The notes beneath the pieces were generated by a model, which saw nothing but the letters and a program-made list of their open reading frames with translations, was not told the DNA's origin and searched no databases. Shown one piece after another: positions 2,769 to 62,924 of a stretch of 64,000 nucleotides of DNA. A program made the position numbers and the translations under genes. Each line of letters opens with the position of its first letter. Position 1 is the first letter of the stretch. This DNA is from Alphaproteobacteria bacterium (lineage in GTDB: Bacteria > Pseudomonadota > Alphaproteobacteria > RF32 > CAG-239): the NCBI GenBank assembly GCA_017480745.1, contig JAFUSA010000008.1, positions 10,530 through 74,529 of the forward strand. The letters are read 5' to 3'.

Positions 2769-2922
2769 TCTTTTTACCTTTCTTTTTTTACTACCACCCT
2801 TAAAATAATAGAATTTATCGGAAAAGTAAAGCATTTTTTGATAAAAAATATTTGTAATAAAAAATTGCGATATTTTGCAAAAACAGTCTTGAATTTATGG
2901 GAAATTTGCATATAATGAAAAG

Positions 2923-3225
2923 CGTCAAGTTTTGACTGTGACACCAGAGACCTTATGAAATAGGTACATTGGACCCGGGGGCAGTGCCCGGCATCTCCAC
3001 CATTCAAGGGGATGAATCAGGTTTGACAGTGTATAGTAAAGATATGTGTTGTGTCCGGTGAGATACCACCGTTATCGGTTCAAATTAAATGAATGCAAAT
3101 GATAATTTTGCACCTGTTGCCGTAGCTGCTTAGGCAAAAGCAACGAAATAAATTCTTTGTGCTTTGGTTAGTATAAAGTGGGGGAGGAGCCACCCAGCAA
3201 CAGAACGGCTCGAAACTTGAATTAT
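2923..3225 (+). ncRNA. ssrA: two-piece (circularly permuted) tmRNA gene ssrA: acceptor piece ending ..CUCCACCA at 3002, coding piece starting GGGGAUG at 3008, tag reading frame 3094..3132 (ANDNFAPVAVAA*)
   Basis: Promoter TTGAAT(2889)-16-TATAAT(2911). T-arm-like hairpin CCGGGGGCAGUGCCCGG, then UCUCCACCA. GGGGAUG pairs in trans with CAUCUCC. Resume codon GCA, then AAT GAT AAT TTT GCA CCT GTT GCC GTA GCT GCT TAG. The 3' boundary is approximate. Confidence 0.75.
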
Positions 3226-9105: not shown

Positions 9106-10329
9106 ATGGCAACAATTCATTTAATGGTCGGTTTTATGGGATTTGGTAAAACCACGATTGCAAAACAGTTGGCTAAAACAATTCCGGCGATGCGATTTAC
9201 TCATGATGAATTAATGGTTAAACGTTATGGCCGAAATCCGGATGATTTTCAAACAAAATATAGTATTGTAGATGATGAAATTCGTAACAAAACAGCAAAG
9301 TATATAAAGGAGGGGAAAAGTGTTATTCTTGACTATGGTTTTTGGACACATAAACAACGCGAAGAATATTACAAATGGGCAAAAACTCTAACAGATGAAG
9401 TTATTTTTCATTATGTGTATTGTGATATGAATGTTGCAAAACATAGAATATTGAAGCGAACGGAAGATGATTTATCGGCACTGTATATTGATGAAAATAC
9501 ATTTGATTCTTTGGCACAAAAATATGAGCCATGGAATTATATGGATGGTTATCCGGTTATATTGCACAATTTGCCGACAACAAATTATATCGGTAATCGG
9601 GTTTTGGTGAAAATAGATCGCCCGTTAGGAAGCAAACATCCAAAATTTGGTTTTAAATATCCGGTAAATTATGGTTTTATTCCAAATACAAAATCTGGCG
9701 ATGGTGAAGAATTGGATGCCTATATTTTGATAGAGAACAAACCTTTGAAAAAATATGTGGGGCGGTGTGTTGGTGTTGTGCATCGCACAGATGATAATGA
9801 TGATAAGCTAATTGTTGTGCCAGAAGCGTATGATTTAAAAAATGATCGCATTGAAAAAGATATCGCTTTTCAAGAGAAGTGGTTTAATCATATCTTAATC
9901 AGAAATCCTAAAATTACTAAGACTCATTTTGGCGTTTATGGCAGTATAATCAAAGATGGAAAAATTTTGCTAATTAAAAAAGCGCGCGGTCCTTATACCG
10001 GATTATATGATTTGCCGGGTGGAAGTCAGGAAAAAGGTGAAAGCTATGCAGATACGCTTAAACGAGAAATTATGGAAGAAACAGGGTGTGAGGTTATTAA
10101 AGCTGAAAATGAGCGATTTAAATCTATCATTTTTTCAGATTTTACGATTGAAAGCGGTGAAAAAGGTGTGTTGCAACACGAAGCAATTTTGTATGATGTT
10201 GAAATTAAAGGTGTGCCCAAAACAAATGGTGATGGATTGGATTCTAATGGTGCGGTTTGGGTGCATATTAAAGATCTAACATCGGAAAATGCAACCCCGT
10301 ATGCACTTATAGCTGCCGGATTTCATTGA
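9106..10329 (+). CDS. three-domain fusion: P-loop kinase (AAA_33-like) / family I inorganic pyrophosphatase-like / NUDIX hydrolase
   Basis: Walker A GFMGFGKTT. PPase-like DGEELDAYIL (DxDxxD type) motif. Nudix box GGSQEKGESYADTLKREIMEETG. Confidence 0.55.
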   Translation: MATIHLMVGFMGFGKTTIAKQLAKTIPAMRFTHDELMVKRYGRNPDDFQTKYSIVDDEIRNKTAKYIKEGKSVILDYGFWTHKQREEYYKWAKTLTDEVIFHYVYCDMNVAKHRILKRTEDDLSALYIDENTFDSLAQKYEPWNYMDGYPVILHNLPTTNYIGNRVLVKIDRPLGSKHPKFGFKYPVNYGFIPNTKSGDGEELDAYILIENKPLKKYVGRCVGVVHRTDDNDDKLIVVPEAYDLKNDRIEKDIAFQEKWFNHILIRNPKITKTHFGVYGSIIKDGKILLIKKARGPYTGLYDLPGGSQEKGESYADTLKREIMEETGCEVIKAENERFKSIIFSDFTIESGEKGVLQHEAILYDVEIKGVPKTNGDGLDSNGAVWVHIKDLTSENATPYALIAAGFH

Positions 10330-12537: not shown

Positions 12538-12587
12538 TTATGCGTACATGATATATGAAAAATTTTTATTTAGCAAGCTTTTTTATT

Positions 12588-12850
12588 TGACTTTTAGATT
12601 TTTTATGGTAGTATAGAAACAGAACTTCGGTTCGGAGCCTTCATAAGCTCTTATTAATTCCGATGCCTTGCATCGTTAATAGACATGATAAATATCTCCG
12701 ACATGGTTGGGGAGCGTTTTGCGGATGTTCAGGGTGTTAGCCTAAAGGTAAGACGGATCATTTGAATTAATATGGTTTATGAACTCTCCCGACCGCCGTT
12801 TGGCGGTTAGATTTTTATTAATATATAACTTTAACTTAGGAGATAAAATT
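12588..12850 (+). promoter_or_regulatory. class-A pilin-cassette promoter (TTGACT..TGGTAGTAT) + ~230-nt conserved structured 5' leader ending in terminator-like hairpin GACCGCCGTTTGGCGGT + U-run
   Basis: Near-identical to leaders at 35296..35555(-), 40133..40519, 46082..46350 and 62657..62924(-). Internal hairpin CUCCGAC/GUUGGGG shows compensatory changes between copies. Confidence 0.7.
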
Positions 12851-13669
12851 ATGAGAAATTTAGAAATAAAAAATAATGATTGCCACGCTGCGCTCGCAAT
12901 GACGAAAAGCGTGCAGTCCGGACGCTCACTTCTTCCGGAGAGTGGTGCAGATGCGCCGACTGTTTTGAGCGCCGTGTACACAGATAGTACACCAGCGAAA
13001 AACAGGCAAGCAGATGTGCCGCAATACGGGAGAAGTATGATAGAAATGTTGGGTGTGTTGGCCATAATCGGTGTTTTATCGGTTGGCGGAATCGCCGGAT
13101 ATAGTAAGGCGATGACTAAATATCGCATCAATAAAACCATTGAGCAGGTAACCCTTATTGCCGGTAATGTGCGTGCCTTTTGGGGACCACAGAAGAATTA
13201 TGAAGGGGTGTGTTGTAATGGAGGTGATTGCAACGCCTCCGGTTGCTATGGGCATTCCGGCGTTGATGCAAACGGATATCTTACCGCTGATTACAATGGC
13301 TGTCCGATAGTTAAAAAAGCCAAAATATTCCCTGATGAAATGATTACTGTAACTGATGGCAAGATTATGTCTATTAGCAATCCTTTCGGTGGTGGGGTTA
13401 GTTTAAATCAAACGAGTAAAAGTTATAGTGATAATGATAACAAAGCCTTTATTATCGAACTTTATAATATCCCAGAAGAAGCGTGTATTGAATTAGCTAC
13501 TTATGATTGGACAGTTGCCGGAGCAGATATAATAGGTTGGGAATATGCGGATATAACATACACAAAAGTTCCGCTTGATTTGGAAACCGCGGTTAAACAA
13601 TGTGAAGAATCTCATGATTTTTTTACCTTTGTGTTTGATGCAGATACGGTTTCATGGATGAATAACTAA
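12851..13669 (+). CDS. type IV pilin-like protein (prepilin-type N-terminus; long 57-aa leader peptide with in-frame 37-codon insertion), paralog 1
   Basis: Start at ATG after AGGAGATAAAATT. Motifs ...YGRS|MIEMLGVLAIIGVLSVGGIAGY (G-1, E+5), KKAKIFPDEM, PEEACIELATYDW, and C-terminal Cys (AVKQCEES). Confidence 0.7.
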   Translation: MRNLEIKNNDCHAALAMTKSVQSGRSLLPESGADAPTVLSAVYTDSTPAKNRQADVPQYGRSMIEMLGVLAIIGVLSVGGIAGYSKAMTKYRINKTIEQVTLIAGNVRAFWGPQKNYEGVCCNGGDCNASGCYGHSGVDANGYLTADYNGCPIVKKAKIFPDEMITVTDGKIMSISNPFGGGVSLNQTSKSYSDNDNKAFIIELYNIPEEACIELATYDWTVAGADIIGWEYADITYTKVPLDLETAVKQCEESHDFFTFVFDADTVSWMNN

Positions 13670-18022: not shown

Positions 18023-18261
18023 TTGACTTTTTGATTTTTTATGATATAGTCGATACAAGATGAGGTAAAATTCATCTGGGGTGTCAAGACCTCTTAGAGT
18101 CGTCGTGAAGACGTTAAATGATTTCCGGCCTTGGTCGGAAGGTGGGTGAATAAGGTCAGTCGAATAATCCACACTGTTACTCTAATAGTCTTGAACTTCC
18201 GGCCGCCTCAACATGGCGGTTGTTTTGGTGTAATGTCAACAATTTAGAAAGGAAGTTTACT
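18023..18261 (+). promoter_or_regulatory. class-B pilin-cassette promoter (TTGACT-16-TGaTATAGT) + ~200-nt conserved leader ending in hairpin CCGGCCGCC..GGCGG + U-run
   Basis: Shares promoter and 3' hairpin with class A, but has a different middle (ACAAGATGAGGTAA..). Second copy at 53303..53546. Confidence 0.7.
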
Positions 18262-18909
18262 ATGAAAAACTTAGAGATAAAAAATAATGATTGCCACGCT
18301 GCGCTCGCAATGACGAAAAGCGTGCAGAGCGGTCGTTCAATGATAGAGATGCTTGGAGTGTTAGCTATCATCGGTGTTTTGTCTGTCGGTGGAATCGCCG
18401 GATATTCAAAGGCAATGATGAAGTATAGAATTAACAAAACTATTGAGCAAATAACACTCATTGCCGGCAATATTCGCACCTTTTTTGCAAACCAGAGAAA
18501 TTATAAAGGCGTATATTGTTTTTGTAATAACGGCAGTTGCACAGGTCAATCTTCCGGTGATGGCTGTCCTATACATAAAAAAGCCAAAATATTCCCTGAT
18601 GAAATGATTACCATAACTGATGGTAAGATTATGTCTATTACCAATCCTTTCGGTGGTATGGTTGATTTAACAGCAGAGGAAGATAATAAAGCATTCAGTA
18701 TACGATATATAATTCCGGAAGAAGCCTGTATTGAACTTACTTCTCGGGATTGGTCAAATTCTAATATTAATTATATTGGCTTTTATTATAACCATCATCA
18801 AGAGTATATTAAAGTACCATTAAATATTGACGATGCTATTCAACAATGTTCAGCCACGGCGGCTGATACAAATAGCGGAGATGCTATTATATACTTATAT
18901 AGTGAATAA
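18262..18909 (+). CDS. type IV pilin-like protein, paralog 2
   Basis: Start MKNLEIKNNDCHAALAMTKSVQSGRS|MIEML... Cys cluster CFCNNGSCTGQSSGDGCP, then KKAKIFPDEM, PEEACIEL and C-terminal QQCS. Confidence 0.7.
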   Translation: MKNLEIKNNDCHAALAMTKSVQSGRSMIEMLGVLAIIGVLSVGGIAGYSKAMMKYRINKTIEQITLIAGNIRTFFANQRNYKGVYCFCNNGSCTGQSSGDGCPIHKKAKIFPDEMITITDGKIMSITNPFGGMVDLTAEEDNKAFSIRYIIPEEACIELTSRDWSNSNINYIGFYYNHHQEYIKVPLNIDDAIQQCSATAADTNSGDAIIYLYSE

Positions 18910-34671: not shown

Positions 34672-35295
34672 CTATTTAAAAACAAATGTAATCGCACATA
34701 AACTGTTTGTGCAAGTGCATCCTTCAACCGCATCATCAACAGATACCGGCAAATCATCTCTACACACAGAATAAAGGCCCTTTTCACGATAATTGCATAT
34801 ACCGTATGGCTGCATGTTAGAGCTACCTAACGAATCTAAGTTTCCAAATAATATTCCTTGTGTTTCATTCGGCCAATCATGTGAAACAAGGCTAACACAA
34901 GCCTCTTCCGGAATATCACTGAAGCTCAAGTAGAAAGCCTTTGGGTTTGAATGATCCGAAAATATATATACCCCACTTCCATAAACACTGTTTATCTCAT
35001 CTTCATTCCACATTTCATCGGGAACCAATTTTGCCTTTTTCAAAATAGTTTTAACATCATTTTTGTCACCACTTGCTCCATAATCTTTTATATCTTCATA
35101 ATTTTTTTGCGAAGCAAAAAAGGCTCGCACATTACCGGCAATGAGAGTTATTTGTTCAATGGTTTTGTTAACCCGATATTTCATCATTGCTTTTGAATAT
35201 CCGGCAATACCACCAACGGAAAGAACACCAATAATGGCTAATACGCCCAGCATCTCAATCATTGAGCGTCCGGATTCTGCATTATATGTTTTCAT
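34672..35295 (-). CDS. type IV pilin-like protein, paralog 4
   Basis: MKTYNAESGRS|MIEMLGVLAIIGVLSVGGIAGY..; KKAKLVPDEMW; PEEACVSLVSHDW; C-terminal CTCTNSLC. Confidence 0.7.
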   Translation of the reverse strand: MKTYNAESGRSMIEMLGVLAIIGVLSVGGIAGYSKAMMKYRVNKTIEQITLIAGNVRAFFASQKNYEDIKDYGASGDKNDVKTILKKAKLVPDEMWNEDEINSVYGSGVYIFSDHSNPKAFYLSFSDIPEEACVSLVSHDWPNETQGILFGNLDSLGSSNMQPYGICNYREKGLYSVCRDDLPVSVDDAVEGCTCTNSLCAITFVFK

Positions 35296-35555
35296 TTTTA
35301 AATCTCCTTCTTGAAAAAATTTGACATTAATAACTAATCAACCGCCAAACGGCGGTCGGGAAGTAAGAAAATCATAGAATTGCAAATGATCCTCGTAATC
35401 TTTAAGCTAATGCTCTGAACATCCACCACGAGCTCCCCAACCCAAGTCGGAGATACATCAATATAACGGCGTCAAGCGCCGACAATTCTAAGAGCTTTCT
35501 TAGGGCCCGAACCGAAGTTCAACTCCTATATTATCACAAAAAACGCAAAAGTCAA
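35296..35555 (-). promoter_or_regulatory. class-A pilin-cassette promoter + structured leader (minus strand)
   Basis: Reverse complement matches the 12588..12850 element end to end. Confidence 0.7.
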
Positions 35556-40132: not shown

Positions 40133-40519
40133 TTGACTTTTAGATTTTTTATGGTAGTATAGAAACAGAACTTCGGTTCGGGGCTTTAGCAAGCTCTTAT
40201 TAACCTCGGTGTTTTTTAACATCGTCAAAAAATATGATGAATATCTCCCAACATGGTTGGGAAGCCTGTGATGGATGTACAAGGAATAATCCCAAAGGTT
40301 GCAGGAATCATTTAGGTTAATATGATTTGCTAACTTCCCGGCCGCCGTTTGGCGGTTTTTTCGTTATAAAATAACCATTACTCCGGTTATTTTTAAGGAA
40401 AGAACCACAGAGCAAGTGACCGAAGCGTAATTAGCGATTGCCAAGCGTTAGAGTAGGCAGAGCTTATGAAGCAAGAAGTTTTTTACTAATAGATATTTCT
40501 CAAGAAAGGAGATAAAATA
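40133..40519 (+). promoter_or_regulatory. class-A pilin-cassette promoter + leader, with ~150-nt extra segment between the terminator hairpin (40337..40361) and the SD
   Basis: Matches the other class-A leaders. The extra segment contains AGTGACCGAAGCGTAATTAGCGATTG, related to GAGTGACCGAAGCAAGCGTAGCGATG at 39986. Confidence 0.7.
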
Positions 40520-41230
40520 ATGAAAAAAATAAATAATCAAAATGGTCGTTCGATGATAGAAATGTTGGGTGTGTTGGCTATAATCGGTGTTTTGTCGGTT
40601 GGTGGAATCGCCGGATATTCCAAAGCCATGATGAAGTATCGTATTAACAAAACTATTGAGCAAATAACACTTATTGCCGGTAATGTGCGTGCATTTTTTG
40701 CTTCGCAAAAAAATTATGATGGTTTAGATTCTGCCAACGTAGGTAGTGATAATGGTTTAGCGCTAATTAAAAAAGCTAAATTGGTAAATGAAGAAATGAT
40801 TGATGAAAATAATGAAATTGTTGATGAAGATTTATCTCACACTCATCATATCTTTAATTCATTCGGAGGTGGTGTTGCATTGTGGGACGATTATCAAGGA
40901 ACTGCCAATGTCCCAGGAACCCCTCATACTAAATATTTTCAGATTATATATTTTCGTTTACCACAAGAGGTATGTATAGAATTGGTAACTCAAAATTGGA
41001 GTAATTCGGCCATGGGTTTGAAAGTATTGATTATAAATTCTAAGGAAGAGCTTGATGAATTTGGCAATGTAAAGGATTCGTGTTCAGATAACAATGGTTT
41101 AATAAACGGTACTAAGACAATTGCCTGCCCGAATGGAAAAACTGTACCGATTCCGGTACCGTTGGATATAGCAGTTGATGCTTGCAATTGTCCAAATAAT
41201 GACTGCACCATTATATGGGGATTTAAATAA
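40520..41230 (+). CDS. type IV pilin-like protein, paralog 5
   Basis: MKKINNQNGRS|MIEML...; KKAKLVNEEM; PQEVCIELVTQNW; C-terminal DACNCPNNDC. Confidence 0.7.
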   Translation: MKKINNQNGRSMIEMLGVLAIIGVLSVGGIAGYSKAMMKYRINKTIEQITLIAGNVRAFFASQKNYDGLDSANVGSDNGLALIKKAKLVNEEMIDENNEIVDEDLSHTHHIFNSFGGGVALWDDYQGTANVPGTPHTKYFQIIYFRLPQEVCIELVTQNWSNSAMGLKVLIINSKEELDEFGNVKDSCSDNNGLINGTKTIACPNGKTVPIPVPLDIAVDACNCPNNDCTIIWGFK

Positions 41231-46081: not shown

Positions 46082-46350
46082 TTGACTTTTAGATTCTTTA
46101 TGATATAGTAGAAACAGAACTTCGGTTCGGAGCTCTGAAAAGCTCTTAAATACTTCGGTGTTTTAGATAATACCGTGAAAGTGATATAAAAATATCTCCC
46201 GAAAAGGTCGGGAAGCTCGTAACGGATGTTCAGAGCTTTTAGCTCAAAGGTTGCGAGAGTCATTCAAGTATTTATGATTTTTCAGCTCTCCCGACCGCTA
46301 TTTGGCGGTCATGTTTTTAATGTATAACTATTAGCAAAGGAGATAAATTT
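46082..46350 (+). promoter_or_regulatory. class-A pilin-cassette promoter + structured leader
   Basis: Same architecture, with hairpin GACCGCTATTTGGCGGTC + ATGTTTTT before the SD AAAGGAGATAAA. Confidence 0.7.
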
Positions 46351-47118
46351 ATGATAAACTTAGAAATAAAAAATATAAAGAGTCATCCCTCGCTGAGCCT
46401 TGCCAAGGCGAAAGCGTCAAGGGATCTTCAAATTAATTTTAATCAAGCGGAAGATGCCTTGACGATTCCTGCGGAATCAAAGCATGACTATAAGTGTGGC
46501 TCCGCCACACAGAGCGGAAGAAGCATGATAGAGATGTTGGGCGTTCTTGCAATAATCGGTGTTTTATCGGTTGGTGGAATCGCCGGATATTCCAAAGCGA
46601 TGATGAAGTATCGTATTAACAAAACTATTGAACAAATCACTTTAATTGCCGGTAATGTGCGTGCTTTTTGGGGACCACAGGGAAATTATAATGGTTTCTA
46701 TTGTGATTGTTCAAGTGAAAGTTATGATTTTTGCTCAGGTCAAGCAAATAATGATGGTTGTCCTATAATTAAAAAAGCCAAATTATTGCCGGATGAAATG
46801 CTGACTATTGATAGCACAACAGGCAAAATTACCAATATTACCAACGCGTTTGGCGGATTATTGTGGACAAAAGATCTCAATTATGGAGGATTTATATTGG
46901 AATTTCGAGATATTCCAACAGAAGCCTGCATTGATATCATTACACAAAATTGGAAAGATGTAAAAGTAGAAAATATAGGGGTAGCAAATGGAGCCGGACG
47001 GCCTGATGTAAGCGCAACGCCGATTGACATAGACACAGCCATTAATTTATGTCAACATGGTGATCATAATAATTTACATTTTCAAGTAGAAAGTAAGGAT
47101 ACGAGTTGGTTGGATTAA
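46351..47118 (+). CDS. type IV pilin-like protein, paralog 6 (62-aa leader peptide)
   Basis: MINLEIKNIK...ATQSGRS|MIEML..; CDCSSESYDFCSGQANNDGCPIIKKAKLLPDEM; PTEACIDIITQNW; C-terminal NLCQHG. Confidence 0.7.
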   Translation: MINLEIKNIKSHPSLSLAKAKASRDLQINFNQAEDALTIPAESKHDYKCGSATQSGRSMIEMLGVLAIIGVLSVGGIAGYSKAMMKYRINKTIEQITLIAGNVRAFWGPQGNYNGFYCDCSSESYDFCSGQANNDGCPIIKKAKLLPDEMLTIDSTTGKITNITNAFGGLLWTKDLNYGGFILEFRDIPTEACIDIITQNWKDVKVENIGVANGAGRPDVSATPIDIDTAINLCQHGDHNNLHFQVESKDTSWLD

Positions 47119-53302: not shown

Positions 53303-53546
53303 TTGACTTTTGATTTTTTTGTGTTATAGTAAACACAAGATGAGGTAACTTATCTGAGGTATCCTAACCTCTTAGCATTCGTCTTTATAGACGTAAATTA
53401 TTCCGACAGTGGTCGGAAGGTCGCGGAATAGAATGGATATTTAATATGCGACACTATTTAATGCTAATAGTTAGGAACTTCCGGCCGCCTCATTAGAGGT
53501 GGTTATTTTAATGTAATTCAACAACAAAAATGAAAGGAAGTTTACT
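53303..53546 (+). promoter_or_regulatory. class-B pilin-cassette promoter (TTGACT-16-TGtTATAGT) + leader
   Basis: Matches 18023..18261 in the ACAAGATGAGGTAA.. block, ..CCTCTTAG.., GGTCGGAAGG, and the final CCGGCCGCC..GGTGG hairpin + TTATTTTA. Confidence 0.7.
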
Positions 53547-54182
53547 ATGAATAACTTTGAAATAAAAAATCAAAACGGACGCTCTATGATAGAAATGTTA
53601 GGCGTGTTGGCAATCATTGGCGTATTATCTGTTGGCGGAATCGCCGGATATTCTAAGGCGATGACTAAATATCGCATCAATAAAACGATTGAGCAAATAA
53701 CGTTAATTGCCGGCAATGTGAGAGCATTCTTTGCTCCGCAAGGAAATTATGACGGATTAAATCCACTTGTTGACACAGGAAAAGCAATTATCAAAAAAGC
53801 TAAACTTGTGCCCGATGAAATGTGGGACGGTAATAATATTAAAAATGTTTGGGGAAATTCTGTTTCCCTCGATTCGGCGTCTAAATCTTCTTTCGGGGAT
53901 AAGAAGGCATTTAAGATACAGTATTTAATGCCAACGGAATATGATATATGTATTGAAATTCTTAGTTACGATTGGACAAATGCCGGAGTAAAGTTTATAA
54001 TTCTTTCAGGTCCGTCATCCGTCAAAAATGCTAAAGCGCCGTTTAGCTTGGAACAGGCTATTGATTTTTGCACTAAATGGCTGAGTAGTCCTGCAAATAA
54101 GACTATGGAAGCAATACCCTCACAATTTTATTTTGATGTTAATGATAACTGCATCCACGGCGAGGGAACTGGTTGTAATTAA
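53547..54182 (+). CDS. type IV pilin-like protein, paralog 7
   Basis: MNNFEIKNQNGRS|MIEML..; KKAKLVPDEMW; YDICIEILSYDW; C-terminal DFCTKW. Followed by terminator AAGGCGGAG..CTCCGCCTTTTCT. Confidence 0.7.
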   Translation: MNNFEIKNQNGRSMIEMLGVLAIIGVLSVGGIAGYSKAMTKYRINKTIEQITLIAGNVRAFFAPQGNYDGLNPLVDTGKAIIKKAKLVPDEMWDGNNIKNVWGNSVSLDSASKSSFGDKKAFKIQYLMPTEYDICIEILSYDWTNAGVKFIILSGPSSVKNAKAPFSLEQAIDFCTKWLSSPANKTMEAIPSQFYFDVNDNCIHGEGTGCN

Positions 54183-61981: not shown

Positions 61982-62656
61982 TTATTTATCAAATAGCAAA
62001 CGTAATGACGGACAAAGTGAAGTAAAATTATAAGATTTACATCCTTGCAATGCTGTAGAACAAAGAGAAACAGCATCTTCAAGACTAACAGTAGTGGTAT
62101 TAAAGTCATAAATATCTCGTGGATAATCTAAGCCAACAGATGATGCACCGGTATTACTCCAATCTTGACTGATCAACTCAATACACACTTCTTCGCTATA
62201 TGCTATTTGGTAATCAATATAAAATCCTCTTGTACCATACGTATCTAAATTAGTATTACCACCAAAAGCATTGCTAATCTCCGTAATTAATCCTGCGTTG
62301 TCTGTTACAACCATCTCATCGGGCAATATTTTAGCTTTTTTAATTACCGGACAACCATCACCGGATGATTGCCCCCCGCAAGGACTATTATTACACTCAC
62401 AATGCACTCCGTCATAATTGCCTTGCGGGGCAAAAAATGTTCTCACATTACCGGCAATAAGTGTTATTTGTTCAATCGTCTTATTGATGCGATATTTTTG
62501 CATTGCTTTTGAATATCCGGCTATTCCGCCAACCGATAAAACGCCGATTATGGCCAACACACCAAGCATTTCTATCATCGAACGACCACTCTGAGTGTTC
62601 TCTGTCATTGTGAGCGCAGCGTGGCAATTTATATTTTTAATTTCAAAGCTTTTCAT
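61982..62656 (-). CDS. type IV pilin-like protein, paralog 8
   Basis: Start MKSFEIKNINCHAALTMTENTQSGRS|MIEML..; CECNNSPCGGQSSGDGCPVIKKAKILPDEM; SEEVCIELISQDWS; C-terminal LCSTALQGC. Confidence 0.7.
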   Translation of the reverse strand: MKSFEIKNINCHAALTMTENTQSGRSMIEMLGVLAIIGVLSVGGIAGYSKAMQKYRINKTIEQITLIAGNVRTFFAPQGNYDGVHCECNNSPCGGQSSGDGCPVIKKAKILPDEMVVTDNAGLITEISNAFGGNTNLDTYGTRGFYIDYQIAYSEEVCIELISQDWSNTGASSVGLDYPRDIYDFNTTTVSLEDAVSLCSTALQGCKSYNFTSLCPSLRLLFDK

Positions 62657-62924
62657 AATTACATCTCCTTTTACAGAAAAACTGTTGATAAAAGACAATG
62701 CCGCCCAAAACGGCGGCAGGGGAGTTCGTAAATCATGTTATGGTAAATGACCCTTGCAATCTTTAAGCTAACGCTCTGAACATCCACTGCAAGCTCCCCG
62801 ACCAAATCGGAGACATTTATCACATATCCAATAACGGTGTAAGAAACACCTACCATAACAAGAGCCTACGACAGCCCCGAACCGAAGTTCTGTTTTACTA
62901 TACCACAAAAGTGGCAAAAGTCAA
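62657..62924 (-). promoter_or_regulatory. class-A pilin-cassette promoter + structured leader (minus strand)
   Basis: Reverse complement matches the class-A consensus, including GAACTTCGGTTCGGGGC, CTCCGATTTGGTCGGGGAG and the CTGCCGCCGTTTTGGGCGGC + T-run hairpin. Confidence 0.7.

Follow-up and report, generated by a model that had tools for sequence, protein, structure and literature searches.

Seven cassettes that each consist of a structured leader followed by a pilin gene lie as monocistronic islands between housekeeping genes in a 64,000-nucleotide (nt) stretch of an Alphaproteobacteria bacterium genome (contig JAFUSA010000008.1; the whole stretch analysed is called the window). Two of these leaders, at positions 18023-18261 (B1) and 53303-53546 (B2), form what an earlier note made from the letters of the window called class B, and the other five form its class A. 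We propose that the class-B leader is an attenuator or riboswitch-like leader of its pilin gene, which would terminate transcription by default and switch by exchanging base-pairing partners. Given the folding models and comparisons described below, we put the probability of this reading at roughly 70%.

The class-B pair lies where the earlier note had placed it, and the two copies align over their whole length with 84% column identity. All the sequence blocks that they were said to share are present, namely ACAAGATGAGGTAA...TCATCTG, CCTCTTAG, CGTC..GACG, GGTCGGAAGG and GAACTTCCGGCCGCC..GGYGG followed by a U-run. The promoter described as common to the cassettes is borne out as well: the pattern TTGACT-16-TGnTATAGT has four matches in the window, where 0 are expected, and a promoter scan calls an extended -10 element at both class-B copies. 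The predicted sigma-70-type promoter of B1, TTGACT-16-(TG)TATAGT, occupies 18023-18050 (+) with a 10/12 match, and its counterpart in B2, with the same elements and spacing, is called at 53303-53330 (+). At the 3' end, a G+C-rich, terminator-like hairpin with a short U-run is called at 18200-18222 in B1 and at 53483-53504 in B2. The predicted intrinsic terminators that contain these hairpins span 18200-18226 (+) (CGGCCGCC-loop-GGCGGUUG followed by UUUU; eight pairs, six of them GC, and a T-rich tail) and 53483-53509 (+) (GGCCGCCUC-loop-GAGGUGGUU followed by AUUUU). Among homologues the stem has undergone compensatory change, with GCC/GGC replaced by ACC/GGU in the leader L107b. When folded as single sequences, both leaders are more stable than their shuffled versions (z -3.25 for B1 and -6.61 for B2).

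Each class-B leader precedes a type IVb-like pre-pilin gene. That of B1 (18262-18909, +) has the ribosome-binding site (RBS) AAGGAAG at about 18250 and matches Bundlin (8.9e-9), PilS (3.6e-7) and N_methyl; that of B2 (53547-54182, +) has an N-terminal methylation motif and Bundlin/PilS domains. The family is very large, as 7,970 of 8,000 scored candidates pass E <= 1e-3, and the closest homologues are proteins of metagenome-assembled genomes labelled "Alphaproteobacteria bacterium". The distance from terminator to pilin start codon in the class-B cassettes is only about 40 nt, too little for the pilin gene to have its own promoter, and its expression must therefore come from read-through. Judged from its sequence, the class-B stretch is a self-contained cassette made of a strong, constitutive-looking promoter, a cis leader of about 170 nt, a predicted intrinsic terminator and a pilin gene.

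Fold of the class-B leader and its competing pairings

With nhmmer profiles run over contigs that encode close pilin homologues, we recovered 21 class-B and 11 class-A leaders, all distinct, on contigs of several ENA, JGI and NCBI assemblies (related metagenome contigs). All full-length leaders except one are followed by a pilin-family gene or a fragment of such a gene, and the exception precedes an open reading frame (ORF) of 67 amino acids. A search of a genome collection with the B2 pilin protein found one other species only, and was of no use for covariation because the pilin genes of that species carry a different upstream cassette. A metagenome scan with the pattern TGGTYGGRAGG-N(42-72)-CTYCCGRCCGCC, designed on the segments called seg2 and seg3 below, returned no additional pilin leaders. 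The same scan gave elements resembling the small RNA (sRNA) sRNA-Xcc1, along with GC-rich chance matches, and these provided our comparison and decoy sets.

The 21 class-B leaders were aligned with MAFFT (alignment A3), and RNAalifold folds them into the hairpins H0, Ha and Hc, the helices P1, P2, P2a and P3, and the terminator, with compensatory change in 16 of 41 pairs. Two long-range helices were spotted by inspection: L1, in which the Ha loop pairs with the junction strand J3/1, and L2, in which the strand right after Ha pairs with the P3 loop. As modelled, the class-B fold is a three-way junction of P1, P2 and P3 accompanied by L1, L2 and three small hairpins.

Comparative evidence for the two long-range helices is extensive. 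With L1 entered as a pseudoknot, 97.7% of the cells in alignment A3 are paired and 22 pairs have changed on both sides; none of 500 shuffles reaches the observed values, and partners slid by one to three columns pair at 32-46%. All seven L1 positions are paired in 21/21 sequences by an anchor-based count, with two to four pair types at six positions, and in the alignment (helix 3) all five L1 pairs have changed on both sides. For L2, the first eight of nine scored positions are paired in 20/21 to 21/21 sequences with up to five pair types; over all nine, 95% are paired, versus 53% with shuffled partners, and 0 of 2000 shuffles reach the observed value. The five pairs of P2 show up to six pair types in the anchor-based count. 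G-U pairs found in a single orientation are common (ten at L1 position 5, for example), which places the constraint on RNA of the sense strand and not on the DNA. DNA-level inverted repeats were rejected on this ground as the reason for L1 and L2.

Compensation is also seen between the two copies in the window. L1 reads UCAAGAC/GUCUUGA in B1 and UCCUAAC/GUUAGGA in B2, L2 reads UUAGAGU/ACUCUAA and UUAGCAU/AUGCUAA, P2 reads UGGGU/AUCCA and UCGCG/UGCGA, and Hc is compensated as well. Structure-preserving substitutions are abundant both here and over the 21 homologues, which is not what neutral drift alone, a possibility raised in the earlier note, would leave behind.

In B1, where all elements are on the (+) strand, H0 (AGAUGAG/UUCAUCU around a conserved GGUAA loop, 18058-18077) is present in the minimum-free-energy (MFE) structure and is 93% paired, with one pair varying among GC, AU and GU. 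Ha (GGGGU/ACCUC, 18078-18093), recognised from covariation counts, follows it, and the Ha loop together with the first two bases of the Ha 3' arm constitutes the L1 5' strand (18084-18090). The L2 5' strand UUAGAGU (18094-18100), whose partner is the P3 loop plus 2 nt (18179-18185), is succeeded by Hc (CGUC GUGAA GACG, 18101-18113; three of four pairs changed on both sides). Further downstream are seg1 (UUCCGGC, 18123-18129), which is supported by covariation and the MFE structure, and seg2 (GGUCGGAAGG, 18133-18142). The P2 stem (UGGGU/AUCCA, 18143-18171; five of six pairs changed on both sides) surrounds the internal loop GAAUA...AAUA and the inner hairpin P2a, and P3 (ACUGUU/AAUAGU, 18173-18189; 97.6% paired, two pairs changed on both sides) carries the L2 3' strand as its loop. 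J3/1 plus 2 nt forms the L1 3' strand GUCUUGA (18188-18194), after which seg3 (A+CUUCCGGCC, 18195-18204) supplies the 3' strand of P1.

B2 keeps this order on the (+) strand. Its 5' domain (53338-53393) comprises H0 (53338-53355), Ha (53356-53371) and Hc (53380-53393), with the 5' strands of L1 and L2 at 53362-53368 and 53372-53379, and the stretch 53401-53420 holds seg1 (UUCCGAC, 53401-53407) and seg2 (GGUCGGAAGG, 53411-53420). The junction interior (53421-53486), which scores 88.3 bits with R1, a covariance model built from class-B 3' domains only, contains P2 (53421-53451), P3 (53453-53471, including the L2 3' strand at 53460-53467), J3/1 with the L1 3' strand (53470-53476) and seg3 (53477-53486). 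No conserved leader ORF was seen among the leaders, and a candidate leader peptide in H0 (AUGAGGUAA, AUG-AGG-UAA) was discarded as it is not conserved and is lost in copies with AUA.

The strand on which the proposed mechanism turns is seg2 (GGYYGGAAGG), which has two partners. Its pairing with seg1 (UUCCRRC), a few nt upstream, gives a hairpin of 7 bp. This hairpin is 98.6% paired, a value reached by 0 of 2000 partner shuffles, and the variable positions of the two strands change jointly between GA/UC and AG/CU with wobble intermediates. With seg3 (CUUCCRRCC), seg2 forms P1 (helix 5), which is 100% paired and exceeds all partner shuffles, and in which pair 98:175 is CG in ten sequences, UA in nine and UG in two. 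The seg1:seg2 and seg2:seg3 pairings are mutually exclusive, and both covary. Two more sites have dual partners. The last base of the Ha arm GRGGY covaries either with the R of RCCUC within Ha or with the R before CUUCC (in B1 the alternative partner of this arm is ACUUC at 18195-18199), and the first base of the P3 3' arm covaries either with the 5' arm of P3 or, as an extension of L2, with the strand following Ha. All of this, from the helices and their covariation to the exclusivity of the pairings, was observed in silico.

Because seg3 shares 5 nt (B1) or 4 nt (B2) with the 5' arm of the called terminator, P1 would be an antiterminator and seg1 an anti-antiterminator. The expression platform that emerges here is more than the final hairpin: it is a three-segment switch of seg1, seg2 and seg3 embedded in the core of the leader. 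In the proposed OFF fold, seg1 would pair with seg2 as a local hairpin, the 5' domain would zip onto the 3' domain through extended L1 and L2 helices and GRGGY:RCUUC, and the free seg3 would complete the terminator hairpin, stopping transcription ahead of the pilin gene. In the proposed ON fold, seg2:seg3 would form P1 of a P1/P2/P3 junction resembling sRNA-Xcc1, Ha and P3 would close, and the cores of L1 and L2 could persist as pseudoknots. P1 would then take 4-5 nt of the terminator 5' arm, allowing RNA polymerase to read into the pilin gene. Reaching the ON fold would need an input that stabilises the junction or sequesters seg1, which might be a small molecule, a protein or an RNA.

A nested energy model, which ignores pseudoknots, places OFF minus ON at -11.5 +/- 3.4 kcal/mol, and in nascent transcripts ending just past seg3 the seg2 strand is bound to seg1 in 17 of 21 MFE structures. 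Since OFF is favoured energetically and seg1:seg2 prevails in the nascent structures, termination would be the default and an input would be needed for read-through.

Class A as a second subtype

The earlier note counted four class-A copies, whereas the window contains five. The leaders at 12587-12817 (+), 40135-40366 (+) and 46082-46319 (+) precede pilin genes at 12851-13669, 40520-41230 and 46351-47118, the leader at 62691-62924 (-) precedes the gene at 61982-62656 (-), and the additional copy at 35331-35528 (-), found with nhmmer and R1, precedes the gene at 34672-35295 (-). The copies at 46082-46319 and 62691-62924 were recognised with nhmmer, by parsing and with R1. The cassette with the gap at 40366-40519 has about 150 nt between terminator and pilin start, versus about 30-40 nt elsewhere.

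According to the earlier note, class B had only its promoter and terminator in common with class A. Judged by primary sequence this description holds roughly, as the nhmmer profile of neither class finds the other class, but it fails at the level of architecture. The 11 class-A leaders can be parsed in the same order as class B: H0 (a UUCG hairpin), Ha, the L2 strand, Hc, an extra hairpin, seg1 and seg2, followed by P2/P2a, P3, J3/1, seg3 and the terminator. Both classes have the triad seg1 UCCRRC, seg2 GGUYGG(G)RAG and seg3 CUYCC(C)GRCC. In class A, L1 is 98.7% paired, L2 100% (9 bp) and P2 100% (7 bp), each with many pair types and with 0 of 2000 shuffles reaching the observed value. Furthermore, the best non-self matches of R1 are the five class-A leaders of the window, with 26.2, 21.2, 19.1, 18.5 and 11.4 bits (E 1.6e-4, 3.4e-3, 0.012, 0.018 and 1.4, the fifth being weak) and end-to-end alignments in register; the strongest is the copy at 40135-40366 and the weakest that at 12587-12817. 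According to these models, classes A and B are two subtypes of one RNA architecture.

The classes differ in the sequences of H0 and Hc, in the extra hairpin of class A and in the unpaired nucleotides of the P2 internal loop, where class B conserves GAAUAR...AAUA and class A GGAUGUWCAG...YAAAG. With conserved unpaired P2-loop nucleotides that differ between them, A and B may recognise different things. The earlier proposal of modular aptamer-like leaders is sustained insofar as these are structured cis leaders sharing a terminator-based platform; its picture of unrelated cores gives way to a common architecture.

Parts of the cassettes appear to have been exchanged. A 23-nt module in the signal-peptide coding region (TGCCACGCTGCGCTCGCAATGAC, encoding ..CHAALAMT..) is present at 12881-12903 (+), 18292-18314 (+) and 62604-62626 (-), and since it occurs in pre-pilins of both leader classes, the pilin paralogues are mosaics. 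As a regulatory hairpin this module was rejected, being no more stable than shuffles (z -0.57). Behind one class-B leader (locus L107, 16680-16865, -) stands the class-A-type RBS AAGGAGAUGUAAA, where class B otherwise conserves AAAGGAAGUUUACUAUG, a swap that looks like another sign of recombination between cassette parts. A related species (genome JAZNJJ01, L002-L011, about 9830-9975 per locus) has the same pilin family with a different conserved upstream cassette, in which two copies of the hairpin GTCCGAAAAAAGGGATCCCTTTTTTCGGAC surround an AT-rich spacer; with this other cassette before the same family, leader type is lineage-specific.

Relation to known RNAs

At the gathering threshold, Rfam 15 finds only transfer-messenger RNA (tmRNA) and tRNAs in the whole window. 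The tmRNA gene is of the permuted, two-piece alpha type (2885-3215, +; 200.5 bits) and supports an alphaproteobacterial origin. Permissive Rfam scans of B1, B2 and one class-A leader gave sub-threshold matches or none, and a known Rfam family was rejected as the identity of the leaders because no family reaches its threshold on them. Literature searches for a published pilin-associated RNA motif, or for work on the pilin family of this lineage, found nothing relevant.

The best sub-threshold match, RF02221 (sRNA-Xcc1), spans exactly seg2 to seg3, with 24.7 bits on B1 and 30.6 bits on the orthologue of another class-B leader, compared with a gathering score of 53; RF02221 has no match on B2 (E<=10) or on class A. 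The characteristic P1 of the sRNA-Xcc1 junction (GGYCGGRRGG/CCYYCCGRCC with a 3' RCC tail) is found in class B and in class A. Likeness to sRNA-Xcc1 comprises the three-way junction, a near-identical P1 (GGUCGGRAGG/CYUCCGRCC) with its RCC tail, a P2 with GAAUA...AAUA(A) around an inner hairpin, and P3 and the J3/1 strand, with the P3 region and J3/1 being the two sites of sequence-specific pairing. R1 gives Xcc1-like elements 24-50 bits (37-50 for compact and marine variants) and decoys with the same P1 words 14-29 bits, although the Xcc1-like loci in this comparison were themselves selected through P1. Since the higher scores exceed those of the decoys, the likeness of the best variants reaches P2, the GAAUA/AAUA loop, P3 and J3/1.

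According to published work, sRNA-Xcc1 precedes symE in integron cassettes and an ORF6N gene in APSE phages (bioRxiv 10.1101/2025.06.18.660453; PMC7313666), and in Xylella prophages it neighbours C4 and IsrK RNAs (PMC12189769). Our seg2/seg3 scan yielded bona fide sRNA-Xcc1 elements (58-72 bits) as well as compact and marine variants left uncalled by Rfam. In line with the published contexts, the Xcc1-like elements lie 5' of antirepressor-like (Bro/pRha/Ant-type) and SymE-like genes. In seven diverse Xcc1-like loci (L017, L019, L025, L031, L039, L058 and L082) the P3 arm and J3/1 are complementary to two downstream RBS boxes, much as in the a'/b' to a2/b2 logic of the P1/P7 c4 RNA. This suggests that Xcc1 elements and their relatives may be antisense repressors that are embedded in a leader, like c4, and not free-standing sRNAs acting in trans. 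The compact variant, with GAAUA-N4-6-AAUA and no inner hairpin, was seen in L069 (786-855), L035 (730-799), L101 (1807-1877), L067 (2884-2952), L014 (1698-1767), L046 (414-484) and L082 (5605-5676), all seven scoring 39-50 bits with R1. Rfam does not call those in L014, L035, L046, L069 and L101 at the gathering score, and the variant looks like an unannotated sister group.

The pilin leaders depart from sRNA-Xcc1 in several respects. True members pair with downstream RBS boxes and occur in a mobile-element context, whereas the pilin leaders have their boxes upstream in the same leader and precede chromosomal pilin paralogues. They also add a 5' domain of about 80 nt and the seg1 decoy, they couple P1 to a terminator, and in class A they lack the GAAUA/AAUA loop. 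Because neither their scores nor their targets and context are those of RF02221, the leaders are not members of that family. They are probably related to sRNA-Xcc1 and probably work partly like it.

The c4 antisense RNA of phages P1 and P7 reportedly has a1b1 and a2b2 boxes. It blocks translation at a downstream RBS after processing. Like c4 (RF01695), the pilin leaders are structured RNAs inside the leader of the controlled operon, use two short recognition elements that pair with boxes of the same transcript, and have box sequences that differ between otherwise similar elements. Unlike c4, the pilin leaders have boxes upstream only, and their predicted output is transcription termination. 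RF01695 has no match in the window at the gathering threshold or in the permissive leader scans. The c4 RNA is among those listed in PMC2864571.

In their covarying, pseudoknotted 5' untranslated region (UTR), in the competition of P1 with a terminator and in a third segment that would act as anti-antiterminator, the leaders resemble terminator riboswitches and attenuators. There is a precedent for a pilin gene as the regulated output, since a cyclic di-GMP (c-di-GMP) riboswitch controls the type IV pilin gene pilA1 in Clostridioides difficile (PMC6200980, PMC6366702). Neither GEMM-I/II nor any other Rfam 15 riboswitch model matches the window at the gathering threshold or the leaders at E<=10. 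The pilin leaders further differ from riboswitches in having many copies per genome (seven in the 64-kb window), one per paralogue and in two subtypes, and their ligand may not be a metabolite.

Attenuation and its alternatives

Two findings that would be expected of an attenuator are in hand. A covarying 5'-UTR structure lies upstream of a coherent set of genes, all of them but one of the pilin family, and terminator and antiterminator pairings are mutually exclusive in silico. However, several points weigh against the attenuator. P1 has a probability of essentially zero in the nested thermodynamic model, and because its direct covariation amounts to two columns, the ON fold leans partly on the likeness to the sRNA-Xcc1 junction. 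P3 and Ha have only one to three compensatory events each, and the cell counts are inflated by close orthologue pairs among the 21 class-B sequences. The terminators may be weak, as their U-tracts are short (UUUU) and, in some class-A copies, do not directly follow the stem. Finally, termination, read-through, switching and the existence of a trigger are all features that we infer from the predicted folds.

The pairing partners of L1 and L2 bear on what else these leaders might do. Both helices differ in almost every paralogue, with nearly invariant flanks. In class B, the computed duplex energy of the P3 loop plus J3/1 with the 5' domain is -15.8 kcal/mol within a leader and -5.3 kcal/mol (standard deviation (sd) 2.4) in non-cognate combinations with other leaders, and the corresponding values for class A are -18.7 and -7.0 kcal/mol (sd 3.0). 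No such preference for the cognate partner is seen in the complementarity to the region from terminator to start codon (-6.8 versus -7.1 kcal/mol in class B, -11.5 versus -10.8 in class A), and a2/b2-type boxes at the downstream pilin RBS were rejected for want of a cognate signal. The divergence of L1 and L2 may be ordinary helix drift, or it may reflect selection against cross-pairing among paralogous leaders in one cell.

Among the alternatives, the one that fares best, though we consider it unlikely, is that the unit is a small-RNA gene whose product of about 170 nt would act in trans as an antisense RNA of the sRNA-Xcc1/c4 type, for instance on pilin mRNAs or nascent leaders, with read-through being secondary. 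Each unit does have its own consensus promoter and terminator, and the short RNA should be the main product if the default fold terminates. The resemblance of the 3' domain to sRNA-Xcc1 (RF02221 at 24.7 and 30.6 bits on two class-B copies, R1 at 24-50 bits) points the same way, and so does the antisense pairing of true Xcc1 elements, in which P3 and J3/1 are likewise the sites involved. In the pilin leaders, however, the P3 loop and J3/1 complement boxes of the same molecule (-15.8 versus -5.3 kcal/mol), not the downstream RBS or paralogues, and a pilin gene that lacks room for its own promoter depends on read-through. Production of such an RNA would also be compatible with attenuation rather than exclusive of it.

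It is improbable, in our view, that the leader is a constitutive structural 5' UTR serving stability, processing or the tuning of translation, with a leaky terminator or stabiliser at its end and with alternative pairings that are folding intermediates. The far greater stability of OFF than ON in energy models, the few compensatory events in P3 and Ha, and the short U-tracts would all fit such an element. Harder to accommodate is the covariation of seg2 and two more sites with two exclusive partners, which is difficult to explain without selection on both folds, and the invariable overlap of seg3 with the terminator arm.

We give similarly little credence to a more speculative scenario, in which the leaders would be domesticated relatives of the sRNA-Xcc1/c4-type antisense RNAs of phages and integrons, whose pairing sites have been re-aimed at the upstream boxes, so that each of dozens of pilin paralogues would have a private two-box code and locus-specific feedback. 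With default termination, leader RNA from each locus would build up and be able to pair only with nascent transcripts of that locus. Should this be true, possibly only one or a few pilins would be expressed at a time from a very large family, giving an RNA-based choice among surface-protein variants without DNA rearrangement.

The other suggestion of the earlier note, two lineages of a mobile promoter cassette whose similarity reflects recent duplication or transposition rather than RNA function, is very hard to sustain: cassettes are indeed scattered as monocistronic islands and paralogues are mosaic, with the 23-nt signal-peptide module common to A and B cassettes, but the leaders travel with pilin-family genes (one 67-aa ORF excepted), orthologous positions are kept between assemblies and between species, and helix sequences that differ in nearly every copy stay complementary, which bespeaks selection on RNA structure.

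Attenuation by exchange of pairing partners remains the reading that we prefer, and the modelled structure beneath it, that of a strongly covarying leader RNA which comes in two subtypes and is missing from Rfam 15, is well supported. This RNA family is present in many copies per genome in an uncultured alphaproteobacterial lineage of gut and rumen. Until now sRNA-Xcc1 has been viewed as an sRNA that acts in trans and is associated with virulence; the pilin leaders link it to a wider leader-embedded group and suggest a route by which an Xcc1-like element can pass from masking an RBS to attenuating transcription. The leader is also the obvious control point at which a cell could choose among so many surface-filament subunits. 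Should there be a ligand, classes A and B would lend themselves as a pair to the study of how specificity changes within one scaffold.

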